A DNA stretch of 38,812 nucleotides, from IMG/VR virus record IMGVR_UViG_3300019926_000031, positions 1-38,812 of that record; one strand, given 5' to 3'. A model generated the notes under the pieces. The model was given only the letters and a program-made list of their open reading frames with translations, made no database searches and was not told the origin of the DNA. Every line of letters starts with the position of its first letter. Within the stretch, counting starts at the first letter, position 1. This stretch comes from a virus. Shown piece by piece: positions 13,349-28,639 of this stretch. Position numbers and translations under genes: made by a program.

Positions 13349-13500
13349 CCAAGACAGCAGCATACATCTACGGCGTTGTAATCGGTTACTGGATAGGGGC
13401 AGGGTATGCACCAACCGGGATAGGAATCTACGGTGCTGGCTTCCTCTCGTTAGTGCTGATAACGATTGCGTACTACTTGGAGAAACAAGATGGCAATTGA
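13345..13500 (+). CDS. Small membrane protein (51 aa)
   Basis: Manual translation MTKTAAYIYGVVIGYWIGAG...FLSLVLITIAYYL. Confidence 0.6.
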   Translation: MTKTAAYIYGVVIGYWIGAGYAPTGIGIYGAGFLSLVLITIAYYLEKQDGN

Positions 13501-14179: not shown

Positions 14180-14881
14180 ATGAGTATATGGCAAGCACCT
14201 TTTGGTAACACCGCTACTGGTGGTGTTGCACACTCAGTCATGGCTGTATCCAAACACAAGCAGACACAGTGCAAGCACTGCGAAGACAACTATACAACCG
14301 GCTTTGATGCACAATACTGTTCAGAACAGTGCTTCTATCGGGAAAAGGGTTCAAGCGCACAGAACATTTTGAAACACGATCACCGTCTGTGCGGAACCTG
14401 CGCAGCTATACTCAAGCAGATCGACCCACCGAGCGAGGAGTGGGAGCACAAACGCCAGAGTATGCAAGAAGTCCTGTTAGAGAACGGGGCAGAGCTCATA
14501 CAAGGCGACTCCAGGATAGAGATAGACGCAACAGAGGCAACCGGCCATAGACCAATCACGGATGCAGTCATCGGGTTTCAGGATAGCACCCCAGAAGCGA
14601 CGGACGTACTAAGAGATAGCCACACAGACAAGTATTCTATTGAGCAAATCACACGCACTGGATTAGGGTGTGAGTGTGGCAATGCAGATACAACGCATAC
14701 TTCGGATATACTCCAACAAGCTGACCTTGTTCGTGTTTTATCTAACTATGTTCAAACGTTTCGGTTACTCTACCACGAAGGGCAGTTAGACCAGATGATA
14801 GACAAGGACATCTTTTTCACAGAATACAAGCGTTCACAGGACATTACATACGCACTGGGGAAAGCACTACACAGTAAGTAA
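14180..14881 (+). CDS. Multi-Zn-finger hypothetical protein (233 aa)
   Basis: CKHC..YCSEQC, HRLCGTC, CECG; preceded by a TTTATAA box at about 14148. Confidence 0.7.
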   Translation: MSIWQAPFGNTATGGVAHSVMAVSKHKQTQCKHCEDNYTTGFDAQYCSEQCFYREKGSSAQNILKHDHRLCGTCAAILKQIDPPSEEWEHKRQSMQEVLLENGAELIQGDSRIEIDATEATGHRPITDAVIGFQDSTPEATDVLRDSHTDKYSIEQITRTGLGCECGNADTTHTSDILQQADLVRVLSNYVQTFRLLYHEGQLDQMIDKDIFFTEYKRSQDITYALGKALHSK

Positions 14882-22560: not shown

Positions 22561-24737
22561 CATTTGAACAAGTCACGCCGGGGTATGCAGCCTTAGCCGT
22601 TGACAGCGGTGACGTACCCACAGAGGATAGCACGCTTGTCTCAGGCGTTGCAATCGGTGAGAACGACATTACCATAGGTGGCAGTGGAAAGCAAACGCTC
22701 TGGCCGAAGGAAACGCTCAAAGAGGCAGCAGACGCCTTAGAAGGGCAACCACTCGCAACGGACACCGACCATACAGCAGAGAACCCGAAAGCACAAACCC
22801 CGGTTGAAGCAATCGCTGGGGAAGTGGTTAACGCCGGGTATGTTGATGGCGTCGGCGTTGTCTTTGAAGCCGAACTCGATGATGAGAGTCTTGCCGACAA
22901 GGTTCGGAACGGGCGGCTTGAAGTCTCACCGCTTGTGAGCCGAGACCTTGAACCGCTTGAAGACGGTGAAGCGGCGTTCAAAGCGACGAACATCAACCGC
23001 TGGCGGGACTTAGCACTCGTAGCGAACGGGGCCGCGCCAAGCAACGAAATCACGGTCGGGGAGAACCCACTAACCGCAGAAGCGTTGCATGAGGCACTGC
23101 AAGAACTAGTCCCACCGGAGCAAGCCGCAGAGAACGCACGGCGTGGCTTAGAGTGTGTTGAAGAGGTTGAGACAGATGCAGGAGAGGCACAGGGGAGGGA
23201 CACCGCGAGAGCAATCATTGACAGTGTGGAAAATAATGAACCACTCTCAGAAGATATGGTGTCAGAGATTGCCAGCTTTGACCGCCATAGAGAGCAAGGC
23301 AATCACACCATAGACGATGAGTTTGAAGGCAATCCTTGTGAGGATAACGGCTATGTGAGTTGGCAACTCTGGGGCGGTGACGCTGGTGTTGATTGGGCAC
23401 AAGATAAGAATGAAAGCATGGCAGAGTCACAAGGCCAGAATCCAAGCACAGAGATACCCAACGCCGAAGCCCTCAAAACAGTTGCCGGTGTCACATTTGA
23501 AGATACCGACACCGGAGAGTTAGACGAAAGCGAAATCCCGAACGAAGGGTATGAAAGTCATTACCTCTACCCGGAGGATACCAAAACCGAGAGTGGCTAC
23601 CCCGTCGTTGACGCAGAGGGCAACCTTCGCAAAGGGAATGTAGACGCGGCATGGTCGCTTGGAGCAAGAGGGCGTGCATCCGAAGATGAGCACGACTCTC
23701 GGCTGATGGAACTCGCACAAGAGTTTGACAATCCCCCAGAGTGGGCTATGGATGATGCTGAGTCAATGGCGGACATGGCCGACCTAAGTAACGGCGACCT
23801 TGTGCGCTGGAATAGTGGCGGGGACAGAGACGCCTTCGGAATGGTGGAAGACACCATTTCAGAAGGGCAGTTTGATGATGAGATTGACGGTGATGTGACG
23901 GTTGAGGCACCTGCGGCGCTTATCACTGTGCATACGCCCGGTGATGACGGGTGGGAGGAAACAGAGCAACAGGTGGCACACAAACCAGACACACTTGAGA
24001 TTATCGACGAACTGCCGGACCCAGAGAGTCTTGCGAAACACGAGGAAAACATGGCAAGCGTCCCGGATAGCCTGAAGTTCGATAATCCCGGTGAAGCCAT
24101 GAGCAAGGCGCAAGGCATGGGTTTTGAGGAAATCCATAGTCACGGAGAGGGAGAATCAACTATCTTCATGCCGGGGCCAACGCATGAAGACCTGCTGTCG
24201 GAACTTGAGACCCAGAGCGATGACGGGACGCAAGAGTCTATGTCCCAGAGTTCTGTGGTTGCGGACTCCAAACTAACAATGGACGAAATTACTGATACTG
24301 ACGTGGCTGTGCTTGAAGCCGCAGAATCTCTTGATGAGCCTGTTCAGGCACTAGAGGAGTTTGCGGCCACGGAACAGCCAACGGTTGTGAACGGAGAAAC
24401 GTTTGAAAGTATGCGCGGCGTGCTTGAGGAAGCCCTGAACGAAAAGGCAGACCTCAAGGAGAGCACGATTGAAGCCCTGTCGTTTGGCGCACTCGTGAGT
24501 GAGTTCCAGAACGACGACGGGGAACTTGTTGCCGAAGCCCTCGTGCAGAATCCTGAGACAAGTCAGCCGGAAGACAACGGTGAGGAAGCCCTGTCGGAAG
24601 ATGCGGATGTTGAAAAGGCAGAGGCACTGTATCAGGATTATCAGAGCCTTGGGCTTGGCGGTGAGGGAATCAAAGACGACATTGTTGAAGCACTCGGTGT
24701 GAGTGACTTTGACGAAGCAAAAGAGGTGCTTAACTAA
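22557..24737 (+). CDS. Modular prohead protease / scaffold protein
   Basis: N-terminal protease-like domain (TDH...GEVV...EVSP) upstream of cement and MCP genes; several internal modules and an acidic scaffold tail. Confidence 0.75.
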   Translation: MTFEQVTPGYAALAVDSGDVPTEDSTLVSGVAIGENDITIGGSGKQTLWPKETLKEAADALEGQPLATDTDHTAENPKAQTPVEAIAGEVVNAGYVDGVGVVFEAELDDESLADKVRNGRLEVSPLVSRDLEPLEDGEAAFKATNINRWRDLALVANGAAPSNEITVGENPLTAEALHEALQELVPPEQAAENARRGLECVEEVETDAGEAQGRDTARAIIDSVENNEPLSEDMVSEIASFDRHREQGNHTIDDEFEGNPCEDNGYVSWQLWGGDAGVDWAQDKNESMAESQGQNPSTEIPNAEALKTVAGVTFEDTDTGELDESEIPNEGYESHYLYPEDTKTESGYPVVDAEGNLRKGNVDAAWSLGARGRASEDEHDSRLMELAQEFDNPPEWAMDDAESMADMADLSNGDLVRWNSGGDRDAFGMVEDTISEGQFDDEIDGDVTVEAPAALITVHTPGDDGWEETEQQVAHKPDTLEIIDELPDPESLAKHEENMASVPDSLKFDNPGEAMSKAQGMGFEEIHSHGEGESTIFMPGPTHEDLLSELETQSDDGTQESMSQSSVVADSKLTMDEITDTDVAVLEAAESLDEPVQALEEFAATEQPTVVNGETFESMRGVLEEALNEKADLKESTIEALSFGALVSEFQNDDGELVAEALVQNPETSQPEDNGEEALSEDADVEKAEALYQDYQSLGLGGEGIKDDIVEALGVSDFDEAKEVLN

Positions 24738-25150
24738 TGGCAGAACCTAGTGCAAGTGCGGAACTTGGCGATGCGGCGTATGGCTCTGACCCGGGGGTGG
24801 TTACCTACGAAGCAGATGAGGCTATCTCTGCCGGGGATGCTGTCACCATTGACAGCACGAATCAACTCCTACAGGCGGCCAACTCTGGTGACACGAACGC
24901 TCGCGTTGTCGGCATTGCGGCTGATGACGCCACTGACGGTGACGAAGTGGGCGTCTATGTGTCCGGTCGAGTAGTCGCAAATGTCGGCAGTGGCGTCACG
25001 GCTGGTGAAGAACTCGCCGCTAGCACGACTGACGGCCAGCTTGCGGCTGGCAGTGGTGGGCCGGTTGCACTCACTGATGCTGGTGGGGTTGCTGGCCTGT
25101 CTGCCGGGTACAGTCTTGATAGTAACACCGCAGTTGTGGAGATTCGATAA
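24737..25150 (+). CDS. Capsid cement/decoration protein (DUF2190-like)
   Basis: EAISAGDAV...VVGIA..DA..G..V.V...G pattern; lies between protease and MCP. Confidence 0.75.
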   Translation: MAEPSASAELGDAAYGSDPGVVTYEADEAISAGDAVTIDSTNQLLQAANSGDTNARVVGIAADDATDGDEVGVYVSGRVVANVGSGVTAGEELAASTTDGQLAAGSGGPVALTDAGGVAGLSAGYSLDSNTAVVEIR

Positions 25151-25995
25151 TGCCTATTGAACAGCGAGATGTTCCGGTTCAGCCGGAGACGATTCTTCGA
25201 GAGGTTCAGGAGCGAACGCAGCCAACCTACCAGTTCCGCGAAGCATTCCGGGACTTTGACGCAAGTGATCAGGACGCCGAGGAACTCAAGTTCCCGGTCC
25301 CAGACGACGACCTTGAAGGCCACGTTGTTGAGATTGACGAAGGCTCTGATTTCCCGCGTTCGGAACTCAACTATTCGGAAGTCTCTGCGGTCCGACAGAA
25401 GTACGGCTTTGAGGTTGTCATTACCGATGAGGCTGTTCGGTTTGGCCGTGTAGATATCGAAATGGAGAGTCAGGAGGAAATGGCTCGCGCGGCCACCAAG
25501 AACCTTGACCAGCGGGCATTCAACCTGCTGGATAGCAACAATAACGGCACTGTCGTTGGCAACGACGGCGAAGACCTTGACTTTGAGGCTGTTGTTGAAG
25601 CCTACGAGGTGCTGAACGCTGGTGAATACGACCTTGGACAGACTGGAATGCTTGCCGGCACGGATGCTGTCCGTGACCTGAGCCTTGACGACTCGTTTAA
25701 TCGGGCAACCGAACTCGGTGATAGTCTCGTTACCGACCAAGGGCCGGAGGTTATTGGTGAGATATATAATATCCCGGTTATGCGGACCAATACCGGGGAC
25801 TTTGGCGACGATGAAGCGTTCATGGTCGACATGAGCAAGTACGGCTACCTTGCCGAGTGGGAACCCATGTCGGTCAACACGTACCGCGAGGAATCCAACC
25901 AGCAGACCGTCTATCAGATTAGCGGTCACAATGGCTTTGCTGTCACTGACGCTGACGCCTGTGTCAAACTACAGGGCGGAACTAGTGGAGCATAG
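25150..25995 (+). CDS. Major capsid protein (HK97 fold)
   Basis: EIDEGSDFP, KYGFEVVITDEA, GEIYNIPV; position in the head module. Confidence 0.88.
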   Translation: MPIEQRDVPVQPETILREVQERTQPTYQFREAFRDFDASDQDAEELKFPVPDDDLEGHVVEIDEGSDFPRSELNYSEVSAVRQKYGFEVVITDEAVRFGRVDIEMESQEEMARAATKNLDQRAFNLLDSNNNGTVVGNDGEDLDFEAVVEAYEVLNAGEYDLGQTGMLAGTDAVRDLSLDDSFNRATELGDSLVTDQGPEVIGEIYNIPVMRTNTGDFGDDEAFMVDMSKYGYLAEWEPMSVNTYREESNQQTVYQISGHNGFAVTDADACVKLQGGTSGA

Positions 25996-26051
25996 AGCGG
26001 CTATACTCGGTGATTAGGGTGGTCTGACTATCCTAATCATAAGCGGCTATA
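25996..26051 (+). terminator. Hairpin downstream of MCP flanked by AGCGGCTATA direct repeats
   Basis: TGATTAGGGTGGTC/GACTATCCTAATCA stem (26011-26039) with G-U pairs; repeats at 25996-26005 and 26042-26051. Confidence 0.5.
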
Positions 26052-26058
26052 GTCACCC

Positions 26059-26415
26059 ATGTCAACAGCCACACCACAACAGGTAACCAACGTCATATCA
26101 ACTGACCTTAGCGACAGTCAAATCCAAAGTTACCTTGATGACGTAACTTTTGAAGCCGAACAGGCGATAGACAAATACCAAAGTAAACTCTCCACAGAAG
26201 CGAAGGAACAGTTAGAGAAATATCTTGCCGCGCTGAGAATCCGGCAGTGGAGAGATAAAGGCATCAGTAGCACATCCAGAGAGACGGCAAGTGTGACCTA
26301 CGAGGGGATGGGTATAGAAGCGCTTAAGAAGGCTGTTGACAAACGCGATCCAAGCGGGACGTTAGCCTTCCAGACGGACACAGACAGATACACAGGAGTT
26401 GCAAGCCATGACTAA
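26059..26415 (+). CDS. Head-tail adaptor (gp15/gp6-like)
   Basis: Follows MCP; DLSDSQIQSYL...YLAA...SVTY. Confidence 0.7.
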   Translation: MSTATPQQVTNVISTDLSDSQIQSYLDDVTFEAEQAIDKYQSKLSTEAKEQLEKYLAALRIRQWRDKGISSTSRETASVTYEGMGIEALKKAVDKRDPSGTLAFQTDTDRYTGVASHD

Positions 26416-26641
26416 AGCACGTTGTACGCGAGGATTTGGAATAGTCACTGACCCAGAAACGGGTGAGGAAATCAACGTTGAAGGGGAATTTGAGACGACA
26501 GCGGAACAGTTTGAACGCCTTGATGCGGCATACTCCGGGATGGAAATTATTGAATCGGATGATAGTTGCGCGCATGGGGATTGCAGCCGGACTGTGACGG
26601 ATAGTAAATACTGCTGGCAACACCCAACCGATGACAACTAA
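26408..26641 (+). CDS. Small virion-module protein with a C-terminal C3H finger
   Basis: CAHGDC...YCWQH. Confidence 0.6.
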   Translation: MTKARCTRGFGIVTDPETGEEINVEGEFETTAEQFERLDAAYSGMEIIESDDSCAHGDCSRTVTDSKYCWQHPTDDN

Positions 26642-26912
26642 CAAACGCCCGTGGTACTGCGACGGGGAGCTGATTAATGAATACAAACACGCAACTCAAA
26701 GTTTAGCGATGCATAAAGCCCTCAAGATAACAAAGAGCATTATCGTTAACCTTGGCTTGATTATAATCACGCTCTATGGGCTTCGGCTGGGGGCTAGCCC
26801 ATCGCGCATTGTCCCCCTATCGTTGCTTATCCTTGCAGCCTTCAACGGTGTCGAATATTCAGAAATCCAGAGTTTGAAACAGGCAATCACTGAGTCTAAC
26901 GATAAAGACTAA
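26631..26912 (+). CDS. Membrane protein (about 2 TM; holin-like candidate)
   Basis: Hydrophobic IIVNLGLIIITLYGL and IVPLSLLILAAF. Confidence 0.55.
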   Translation: MTTNKRPWYCDGELINEYKHATQSLAMHKALKITKSIIVNLGLIIITLYGLRLGASPSRIVPLSLLILAAFNGVEYSEIQSLKQAITESNDKD

Positions 26913-27217
26913 GTGGCAGTATCCCGTTGTCTTAGGTGGCTACGAACTGGTGGTAAAACACCTTCGGATAGCCGTGTAACGTCGCCGCGAGGTAGCGAGG
27001 ACGCACAACCACTGGTTGCCTGTGACCTATCTCGTTTAGGGTGTCTGTCTCTATCGGGCATAGTTTGTTTTTGCATCCGTAGCCAAGTAGCCAACGGCAA
27101 CCGGCTTAAGACCGGTCCCTAAGTGGGTACCACGGTGCAAATCCGTGCGGATGCATATGCTCAAGATGCAAGCCTTGAGCGACGGCAAGACGGTTTTGTG
27201 GGATACTAGTAATCCAC
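26913..27217 (+). ncRNA. Putative ~300-nt structured RNA enclosing tRNA-Leu
   Basis: Long-range AGTATCCC(26918-25)/GGGATACT(27200-07) and GTGG/CCAC stems plus five local hairpins; no credible CDS. Confidence 0.5.
27073..27155 (+). tRNA. tRNA-Leu (anticodon TAA), no encoded CCA
   Basis: Acceptor GCATCCG/CGGATGC+A; D arm GCC/GGC; anticodon arm ACCGG-CTTAAGA-CCGGT; long variable arm CCC/GGG; T arm CACGG-TGCAAAT-CCGTG. Confidence 0.9.
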
Positions 27218-27278
27218 ATGAGACGGCATTAGTGTACACGCCGAAACCGGACAAAACCGAGCGATTATACAACTCACA

Positions 27279-27509
27279 ATGAGTGATAACAATCCATATC
27301 CCGATGAACCAGAACTGTTTGATGAGGAAGGCGATAGCATGGCCTTTGGCGTGGGTTTAGGCGACGGTTTCAAACGACTGAAGCCGCTACCGGGCCGATA
27401 CAAGAGTGCCAAGGCAAACCCGTACTACTACTATCCGGGCTTTATCATCGGCTATCTCCTGAAGGCGCTTGGAGTAGCATTGCTAGCATACGCTGGTGTT
27501 CAGGTGTGA
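27279..27509 (+). CDS. Small membrane protein (76 aa)
   Basis: C-terminal TM segment GFIIGYLLKALGVALLAYAGV. Confidence 0.65.
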   Translation: MSDNNPYPDEPELFDEEGDSMAFGVGLGDGFKRLKPLPGRYKSAKANPYYYYPGFIIGYLLKALGVALLAYAGVQV

Positions 27510-27952: not shown

Positions 27953-28639
27953 GTGCCGAACCAATATAGCGACCCACAACCGTACCAAGACAAAGAAACT
28001 CTTGAGCGGCTATACCATGATGAAGGTATGACCGCAAAAGAGATCGGAGAACATTTTGACGTTTCGCAAGCTACAATCTCCCGCTGGCTTGATCGGAGGG
28101 ATGTAGAAACCAAGACATCCGCTGAAAAGCGAGAGGAACGAGGAACACACCACCGCCCAGTTAAAGAAGGTCCGCACACTGATGAGGAATGGCTTCGTGA
28201 ATGTTACTTTGGCCGGAAAATGTCAATTACTGAAATGGCAGATGAAGCCGGTCTGAAAAGCGAAGTGTCGATCATGAGACAGATGGATCGGTATGGTATT
28301 GACCGACGGCCGAACTACGTGACAAGGGTTTTGCGCGATCCGGGTGCTGGGTTTGTCCATGCAGATGCATATGGATACGAAATTATCAGGCATTCTGTGG
28401 ACGACCAAATCCAGTACTACAAACACCACCGGCTTATTGCGATGGCAGAGCATGGAATCGAGGAAGTGAAACAGAAACACATCCACCACAAGAATAACAT
28501 TCCATGGGACAACCGACCGGAGAACCTACAACTTGTTGATGGGAACAAAGAACATGCACAATATCACAAAGACGAGTGGGGTGGACAAGGCCGTCCCAAT
28601 GCACCAAGAGACGAAGACACGGGGCGGTTCACAGGGTAG
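27953..28639 (+). CDS. HTH-HTH + HNH homing-type endonuclease (paralog 3)
   Basis: LERLYHDEGMTAKEIGEHFDVSQATISRW; HHRLIAMAEHG...IHHKNNIPWDNRPENL. Confidence 0.85.
   Translation: MPNQYSDPQPYQDKETLERLYHDEGMTAKEIGEHFDVSQATISRWLDRRDVETKTSAEKREERGTHHRPVKEGPHTDEEWLRECYFGRKMSITEMADEAGLKSEVSIMRQMDRYGIDRRPNYVTRVLRDPGAGFVHADAYGYEIIRHSVDDQIQYYKHHRLIAMAEHGIEEVKQKHIHHKNNIPWDNRPENLQLVDGNKEHAQYHKDEWGGQGRPNAPRDEDTGRFTG

Follow-up and report, generated by a model that had tools for sequence, protein, structure and literature searches.

What kind of element surrounds a single tRNA gene in the head-tail region of a haloarchaeal virus? The question is raised by IMG/VR record IMGVR_UViG_3300019926_000031 (38,812 nt, analysed over its full length and referred to below as the window), a complete-looking virus record with direct terminal repeats in which a tRNA-Leu(UAA) gene lies in a 366-bp gap between two genes for proteins with hydrophobic segments. 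A first-pass annotation of this one sequence had proposed that the tRNA is part of a single non-coding RNA (ncRNA) of ~300 nt, in which an outer helix encloses five hairpins (A to E) and the tRNA, or else that the region carries a processing signal in the late transcript. Comparison with related viruses leads to a different answer, i.e., two conserved flanks bracket an exchangeable cassette that holds a tRNA or a tRNA-shaped RNA, and covariation of the two flanks as a single closed RNA is not observed. We favor the reading, at a rough probability of 0.6, that Hatrivirus-like (Pyrstoviridae) haloarchaeal tailed viruses have a variable slot for tRNAs at this place in their head-tail region. Neither this slot nor its flanks are mentioned in the record of Haloarcula tailed virus 3 (HATV-3; Hatrivirus, Pyrstoviridae), the closest cultured relative of the window, or in the 2021 paper introducing that virus.

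The window and HATV-3 form a fine-grained mosaic of 33 blastn patches (26 to 2847 nt, 73–100% identity), and one of the high-identity patches in this blastn comparison corresponds exactly to positions 26631–27282, i.e., to the gene for a 93-aa protein on the left of the gap plus the gap itself, and nothing more. The head module of the window is unrelated to HATV-3, yet 81–94% identical to contig L009. Eight further copies of the block were collected via DNA patterns, protein look-ups and cluster members, and these comprise HATV-3 and seven metagenome or virome contigs (L009, L030, L015, L016, L017, L032 and L033). L030 is identical to L009 across the locus (and L031 is the same contig as L009), while L017 is cut off within the tRNA; the number of full copies is seven. 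The flanks of the other copies are 90–98% identical to those of the window and, since every copy is at least 88% alike, comparative tests have little power and missing covariation is weak evidence against structure. No further copies of the block were found in other phage records, species genomes, viral contigs or metagenome scans, with the proviso that the DNA pattern used for the metagenomes overlapped a variable patch, so that copies of the L015 type could escape that scan. Because no such gap was found after the gene in distant homologues (38–48%) of the 93-aa protein, the element appears confined to this close group. Two distant relatives retrieved via a gpG-like tail protein (L002 and L003) have neither an intergenic gap nor a tRNA at the locus.

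The slot itself consists of a non-coding left flank of ~145 nt, the cassette, and a right flank beginning with (T)ATGCTCAAGATG (Table 1). The tRNA-Leu is carried, together with a 15-nt T-rich leader, by the window, L015, L016, L017 and L032, and the copies without tRNA-Leu diverge into other sequence from position 27058 onward. L009 aligns unbroken with the window over 23410–27057 and again over 27133–27282 at ~91% identity, with 3.6 kb of continuous alignment to the left of the cassette and a resumption from the T-arm, so that the cassette alone differs. In L009 and L030, the slot is occupied by a 131-nt tRNA-shaped RNA (element Y), in which 71 nt replace the anticodon arm. In HATV-3, it is occupied by a 155-nt RNA (element X) with a six-pair acceptor stem, a UUCGAAU T-arm and an anticodon arm that is not recognisable, for which no Rfam match was found. 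The slot of L033 (positions 1082–1365) holds an array of X, a short hairpin (GAGUGG...CCACUC) and a tRNA-Met(CAU). The X elements of HATV-3 and L033 show four differences, all of which are situated in loops or change a G-U into a G-C pair. Since the tRNA can be replaced by unrelated sequence, the enclosed part between the flanks measuring 99 to 284 nt among the copies, it does not belong as a domain to a single conserved fold. The proposed ~300-nt ncRNA with a tRNA domain is not supported by the relatives, in which tRNA-shaped genes unrelated to this tRNA take its place within these flanks.

The short motifs UGACUCC, AAAGGCNAGCCA and UAUGGGAA are common to X and Y. The idea that Y is an intron-bearing tRNA was rejected, as every single-intron deletion examined with ARAGORN never produced a normal anticodon loop with U33, and the same procedure yielded zero tRNAs for X. 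A search for transfer-messenger RNA (tmRNA) found none. At the cassette borders, short CATA(G/T) repeats are present at 27058–27062 and 27153–27158, which could be chance or a recombination core, and the corresponding border motifs read CCATATC and GCATATG in L009, and CCACATG and CCATATG in HATV-3. In L033, the short hairpin sits between two 9-nt direct repeats (TCTAGACCG) that may be a recombination scar.

Table 1. Features of the tRNA slot and its surroundings (window coordinates unless another record is named).
Feature	Position	Strand	Basis or remark
tRNA-Leu(UAA), type II, 83 nt, CCA not encoded	27073–27155	+	ARAGORN and hand reading
Cassette-specific T-rich tRNA leader (15 nt) with T-run GCATAGTTTGTTTTT	27058–27072	+	Common only to tRNA-Leu copies
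Conserved non-coding 5′ flank, ~145 nt	26913–27057	+	Alignments of copies
Hairpin A	26938–26973	+	Only flank helix with comparative support
Variable patch within hairpins B and C	27002–27008	+	CGCACAA to TAGCT in L015, L016, L017
Outer helix, 5′ strand	26913–26933	+	Complementary in the window; unsupported as a conserved helix
Outer helix, 3′ strand	27187–27217	+	Within the small open reading frame
Probable small open reading frame, 41 codons (38 from ATG 27166)	27157–27282	+	Open reading frame list, codon-position pattern
Hairpin E, GCUCAAG/CUUGAGC, 8-nt loop with second AUG	27159–27180	+	Followed by T-run 27194–27197
Element X	HATV-3 record 14263–14417		Acceptor stem and canonical T-arm, without normal anticodon arm
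Element Y	L009 161–291	-	Acceptor stem and canonical T-arm, without normal anticodon arm
93-aa protein gene, two hydrophobic segments	26631–26912	+	Open reading frame list; left end of the HATV-3-type shared block
76-aa protein gene, hydrophobic C-terminus	27279–27509	+	Open reading frame list; outside the conserved block

Turning to the closed fold, it was clear that all 57 base pairs listed for it are complementary in the window. For most of the region, however, the dense structure does not go beyond chance. The 305 nt as a whole have a minimum free energy (MFE) of –113.8 kcal/mol and a z of –2.85 when the tRNA is included (–1.9 to –2.4 with the tRNA masked), and the 5′ flank alone folds at the level of its shuffles (z = –0.6 for the window; in six relatives, –0.25 to –1.84 with one value of +0.49). 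A z of –2.96 for the two flanks artificially joined was discarded as a junction artefact. The outer helix (–21.3 kcal/mol) falls in the 5% tail only when its 21-nt 5′ segment is fixed beforehand; once any 21-nt window of the flank is allowed, it is matched by 99 of 200 shuffles, and 7 of 247 equally spaced pairs from elsewhere in the genome match it as well.

The relatives also fail to preserve this helix. In its 5′ strand, GTGG becomes GTGA in L009 (G26916A) or GTTG in L033 without compensation, and AGTATCCC becomes AGTACCTC in L032 (T26922C), likewise without a compensating change in the partner strand. In its 3′ strand, breaks are caused by T27204C (HATV-3 and L033) and by T27207G or C (L009, L015, L016 and L032), and in L033 the stem GTGG/CCAC is lost by becoming GTTG/CCAG. 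The 3′-strand changes that break the helix fall at third (synonymous) codon positions of a small open reading frame (ORF) in the right flank. When the first-pass structure was imposed on a five-sequence alignment, a single pair showed a two-sided change, a score equalled by 194 of 500 shuffles. With uncompensated breaks, zero compensatory pairs and an energy at chance level after segment choice, the outer closing helix is not supported as a conserved element. Hairpins B, C and D do not hold as conserved elements either, since relatives lose strands or pairs without compensation and covariation is absent. Specifically, the TAGCT replacement deletes the 3′ strands of hairpin B (GACG and CAC) together with the 5′ strand of hairpin C, and G27058T abolishes the C27019–G27058 pair of hairpin D in four copies. 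The closed 300-nt fold is a product of reading a single sequence.

Covariance searches against Rfam (Rfam 15) gave no gathering-level match in the window, and the expectation that the region belongs to no family was borne out. At E ≤ 10, the window and three related loci yielded tRNAs and chance matches, the latter (i.e., Plastid-ycf2 in antisense of the tRNA, RF_site8, c-di-GMP-I-UAU and PreQ1) being far below threshold and set aside. No ribozyme family (hammerhead, twister, HDV-like or similar) appeared at E ≤ 10 in positions 26600–27500 or in the HATV-3, L009 and L033 loci. The internal loops of the outer helix are of 1 × 6 nt (C26917 vs. 27208–27213, and G26926 vs. 27194–27199), and do not constitute a bulge-helix-bulge motif, in which a 4-bp helix separates 3-nt bulges on opposite strands.

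The left flank is nonetheless constrained. Its mean pairwise divergence is 6.6% (two replaced patches left out) vs. 15.7% at the third codon positions of the 93-aa gene beside it, i.e., it evolves ~2.4 times slower, and this non-coding sequence is therefore under purifying selection. An ORF on either strand of the flank was considered and ruled out, because the copies differ by indels of 10, 3 and 2 nt, which are incompatible with a single reading frame. No Rfam match was found for the flank, and no box C/D motifs were seen in it by eye. The first-pass annotation had let its proposal depend on the folding energy of the flanks and on covarying flanking helices in homologues. The 5′ flank folds no better than its shuffles, as mentioned above, and covarying helices are absent with the exception of hairpin A. 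RNAalifold analysis of seven 5′ flanks gave a covariation term of –0.04 and favored a local closure of the flank (columns 3–11 with 131–140), which accommodates three one-sided changes better than the long-range outer helix does, its support being weak and derived from the same alignment.

Hairpin A, which had been proposed from the window alone, is retained across the relatives in four folded forms, all of which are built upon a constant GGC/GCC base. These forms are GGUG-GUAAAA-CACC (window, L015, L017 and L033), AGUGG-UAAAACA-CCACU (L032), UCGGG-GGAA-CCCGA (HATV-3 and L009) and UCGGG-GUAA-CCCGA (L016). Such a series of four forms on one base is a classical sign of a selected stem-loop. Separately, a 14-nt inverted repeat (86% complementary) links 26879–26892, at the end of the 93-aa gene, with 27010–27023 in the hairpin C region.

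On the right-hand side, the 366-bp gap is unlikely to be non-coding throughout, as its last 126 nt are probably a coding ORF with an excess of variation at third codon positions. Over the last 79 nt of this ORF, variable columns occur in a ratio of 5:4:13 at codon positions 1:2:3, i.e., 13 of 22 are third-position columns (binomial p ~0.012). The frame is open in six of the seven copies. In L032, it stays open via +1 and –1 indels that lie 45 nt apart and the first ATG reads ACG, and in L016 an uncompensated –1 frameshift occurs within the T-run. The ORF ends on a TGA that shares bases with the ATG at the start of the following gene (ATGA), although this following gene encodes 76 aa in the window and 171 aa in HATV-3. 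A 43-aa version was called as a gene by JGI in one contig, and no homologue was found outside the close group. We consider translation of this ORF fairly likely.

The start of the same ORF overlaps with hairpin E, the second hairpin of the first-pass annotation to hold up, since its stem is invariant in all seven full copies and the sole change (C/A) is in the loop. The first 47 nt of the ORF, comprising hairpin E and the next 25 nt with the T-run, contain 2 variable columns vs. 22 in the following 79 nt. The energy of hairpin E is unremarkable (z about –1), and the T-run after it varies in length between 3, 4 and 5 T.

The tRNA-Leu(UAA) was confirmed as real, being the sole tRNA called by ARAGORN in the window (27072–27156) and forming a hand-read cloverleaf within that call. 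It displays a 7-bp acceptor stem (GCAUCCG/CGGAUGC), a 5-bp anticodon stem with a 7-nt loop carrying U33 and a purine at position 37 (ACCGG-CUUAAGA-CCGGU), a long variable arm (CCC-UAAGU-GGG) and discriminator A27155, i.e., the features of a type II tRNA. Moreover, the substitutions in L015, L016 and L032 preserve the cloverleaf. The conserved elbow (G18 G19; U54-U55-C56) is missing, as all tRNA-Leu copies have T-loop UGCAAAU (vs. UUCRANY) and D-loop AGUAGCCAA without GG. These odd loops are probably the reason why Rfam model RF00005 (gathering score of 29 bits) did not match the tRNA-Leu when 901 nt were searched at a cut-off as lenient as E ≤ 10. The same tool scored a tRNA-Gln of HATV-3 at 53 bits, element Y of L009 at 37.3 bits and the tRNA-Met of L033 at 51.3 bits. 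The UUA codon is rare in G+C-rich haloarchaeal hosts; in these viruses TTA accounts for 11.4% (window) and 13.7% (HATV-3) of Leu codons, at a viral G+C content of ~50%.

The junctions of the slot suggest how it might operate. In copies of the window, L009 and HATV-3 types, an AUG is found 1 nt past the discriminator, and in L033 it is found 4 nt past it. A second, independent junction of this kind exists in HATV-3, where 2 nt separate the tRNA-Gln from the downstream ATG of gp19. The arrangement of t-elements and of tRNA punctuation, in which an acceptor stem and T-arm abut the next start, is thus present, with L032 (ACG) as the exception. RNase P and tRNase Z of Haloferax cleave tRNA-like t-elements, which in this way set the ends of neighbouring RNAs (PMC4326828), and 72% of the mRNAs of Haloferax are leaderless when leaders of 0–5 nt are counted (PMC4983044). 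Furthermore, the virus's own promoter box, CTTTATTATAC, has no copy or look-alike in the flank, and co-transcription is therefore favored.

We propose that the slot would be transcribed within the late transcript, and that host RNase P and tRNase Z would excise whichever tRNA-shaped RNA occupies it. After the tRNase Z cut, a single base would precede AUG 27157 at the new 5′ end (U-AUG), which would be the leaderless form preferred by haloarchaeal ribosomes, and ribosomes might subsequently pass from the small ORF to the gene behind it by means of the ATGA overlap. The tRNA-Leu may be a working decoder that helps to read UUA. Hairpin A would end up in the upstream product, and both it and hairpin E, the latter together with the U-run, may serve as local signals for stability, processing or termination rather than as elements of a 300-nt fold. 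The element is then probably an ordinary viral tRNA in a variable slot, released from the late transcript by these two enzymes. The processing signal that had been offered as a fallback is plausible and close to this mechanism. If true, the tRNA-processing enzymes of the host would serve archaeal viruses as a means of dividing a late transcript and making leaderless mRNAs, which would also explain the exchange of unrelated tRNA-shaped RNAs at one site. HATV-3 is a cultured virus in which RNA ends can be mapped directly.

A number of observations weigh against this view. U55 and G19 are missing from the tRNA-Leu, which also does not match the tRNA model of Rfam, and its role in decoding is not certain. 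Co-transcription and cleavage are themselves inferred from sequence. In L032, where the first ATG is ACG, the AUG would lie 10 nt from the predicted cut, and in L016 the small ORF is frameshifted. The T-runs at 27064–27072 and after hairpin E could act as archaeal terminators, which would favor a separate tRNA unit. Finally, masking the cassette leaves a pair of flanks whose joint folding energy is somewhat better than that of shuffled sequence (z from –0.7 to –3.0).

Among known systems, the locus resembles the codon-supplement tRNAs of tailed phages and archaeal tailed viruses (arTVs) in that a single tRNA for a codon common in the virus is placed among late genes. Viral tRNA regions are known to differ from one related virus to another. 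Several arTV families carry tRNAs (PMC8651126). Unlike these codon-supplement tRNAs, the slot has conserved non-coding flanks and holds non-decoding tRNA-shaped RNAs in relatives, and the tRNA of the window departs from the usual form in its T-loop (UGCAAAU) and D-loop and does not match the tRNA model of Rfam.

Tentatively, we also put forward a bolder idea, in which the slot would be conserved for RNA punctuation and not for decoding. Excision would then split the late transcript and yield a leaderless tail-gene mRNA, while the head mRNA would retain the ~145-nt flank with hairpin A as a structured 3′ terminus. On this view, X and Y would represent new t-elements of viruses, and a true tRNA-Leu or tRNA-Met would be just as excisable from the slot as the non-decoding X and Y. 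One parallel is offered by the t-elements of Haloferax volcanii (e.g., upstream of 5S rRNA), in which a tRNA-shaped RNA likewise lies directly against the next functional RNA. The HATV-3 and L009 elements keep the acceptor stem and T-arm that RNase P and tRNase Z require (PMC4326828), without a normal anticodon arm. In contrast to t-elements, the downstream RNA would be an mRNA and not an rRNA, the element of the window is a full tRNA, and cleavage is here a prediction. Mitochondrial tRNA punctuation is similar in that a tRNA stands between coding regions with a start codon 1–4 nt past its 3′ end, so that excision would likewise give a leaderless mRNA. It differs in that only two independent junctions are present here, with no tRNAs between the remaining genes of the virus.

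Rather unlikely, in our estimation, is a stand-alone tRNA unit with a promoter in the left flank and a terminator (hairpin E and T-run 27194–27197) in the right flank, the downstream genes being reached by read-through. In such a unit, whichever tRNA gene came to lie between promoter and terminator would be expressed by itself. T-runs are the usual archaeal termination signal. The conserved flanks do end near the expected start and stop of such a transcript, and hairpin E with its T-run is the best conserved part of the right flank, but this T-run is inconstant in length (3, 4 or 5 T) and a terminator at this place would sever the tail genes. Similarly, a TTTA box at 27035–27038 lies ~25 nt before the cassette border, but its adjacent bases vary (G27039C and G27041C) and the tRNA-like RNA of the HATV-3 type starts at 27056, too near the box. 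The row of several tRNA-shaped genes in L033 is reminiscent of a small operon. The flank as such bears no likeness to the CTTTATTATAC box or to the haloarchaeal TTWT/CGAAA motifs (PMC4983044).

Improbable is the view that the flanks are module-border 'linker' DNA without RNA function, spread by recombination that is perhaps aided by HNH endonucleases, with the tRNA as cargo. As in the linker sequences of mosaic phages, the block borders (26631 and 27282) coincide with the borders of high-identity patches in genomes that are mosaics of 75–98% patches, and a cassette is swapped between conserved flanks. The CATA(T/G) repeats at both cassette borders and the TCTAGACCG direct repeats in the L033 array fit this view, as do an HNH_3 endonuclease gene that replaces part of the neighbouring tRNA-Gln in L033 and an HNH gene situated 670 nt downstream in the window. 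Unlike such linkers, the flank is more constrained than neighbouring synonymous sites, and recent spread alone is insufficient to account for a rate 2.4 times below that of third codon positions in the same block. Moreover, the rebuilding of hairpin A in four forms points to selection on the fold, and the 47 nt with hairpin E are nearly invariant where the next 79 nt are variable.

The single ~300-nt structured ncRNA, with all five hairpins and the tRNA enclosed by an outer helix, is highly improbable, since the presence of all listed pairs, the z of the 305-nt region, the selection on the flanks and a GUAUCCC/GGGAUAC pairing that is retained in the MFE structure of most copies with the cassette masked are set against uncompensated breaks at 26916, 26922, 27204 and 27207, the one-strand losses of hairpins B and C in L015–L017 and the lost pair of hairpin D in four copies, a 3′ strand that varies at synonymous sites like a coding region, an enclosed part of 99 to 284 nt, an outer helix at chance level, a 5′ flank z of about –0.6 and no Rfam family. 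GOLLD and other large phage ncRNAs share with the locus a viral non-coding region that adjoins a tRNA, whereas the present flank is 145 nt long with one supported hairpin, and has no covarying helices and no relevant Rfam match at E ≤ 10. As judged from these searches, the locus is not GOLLD-like, falls in no Rfam family, and has neither a ribozyme core nor a bulge-helix-bulge motif.

With regard to the neighbouring genes, the 93-aa protein is 98–99% identical in relatives, with variable columns in a 5:1:34 ratio by codon position, and blastn identity to HATV-3 begins exactly at its first position (26631); no Pfam family was found for it. At the place of the 76-aa gene, HATV-3, L009, L016 and L033 have a different 171-aa gene, and similarity stops at 27282.

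The comparison also corrects the annotation of HATV-3 with respect to gp21, a tRNA-Gln and the start of gp19. Gene gp21 ('hypothetical protein', 98 aa; record 14246–14542, corresponding to L001 3401–3697) spans X and extends into the small ORF, and is probably a false gene call of which the last 41 codons alone look coding. The tRNA-Gln(UUG), with an Rfam score of 53 bits, is unannotated and located at 13401–13478 of the record (L001 2556–2633). The annotated GTG start of gp19 falls inside this tRNA-Gln, and the ATG located 2 nt past the 3′ end of the tRNA is the more likely start.

Finally, endonuclease genes were observed close to these tRNAs. In L033 (positions 3–290), an HNH_3 gene stops 0–1 nt before the last 27–28 nt (T-arm and 3′ acceptor strand) of the tRNA-Gln, whose 5′ two-thirds have been replaced by the endonuclease gene. 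The window encodes a free-standing HNH_3 endonuclease with N-terminal helix-turn-helix domains at 27953–28639, with the gpG-like tail gene on one side and the next tail gene on the other, and the HNH gene found at the corresponding place in HATV-3 is dissimilar.

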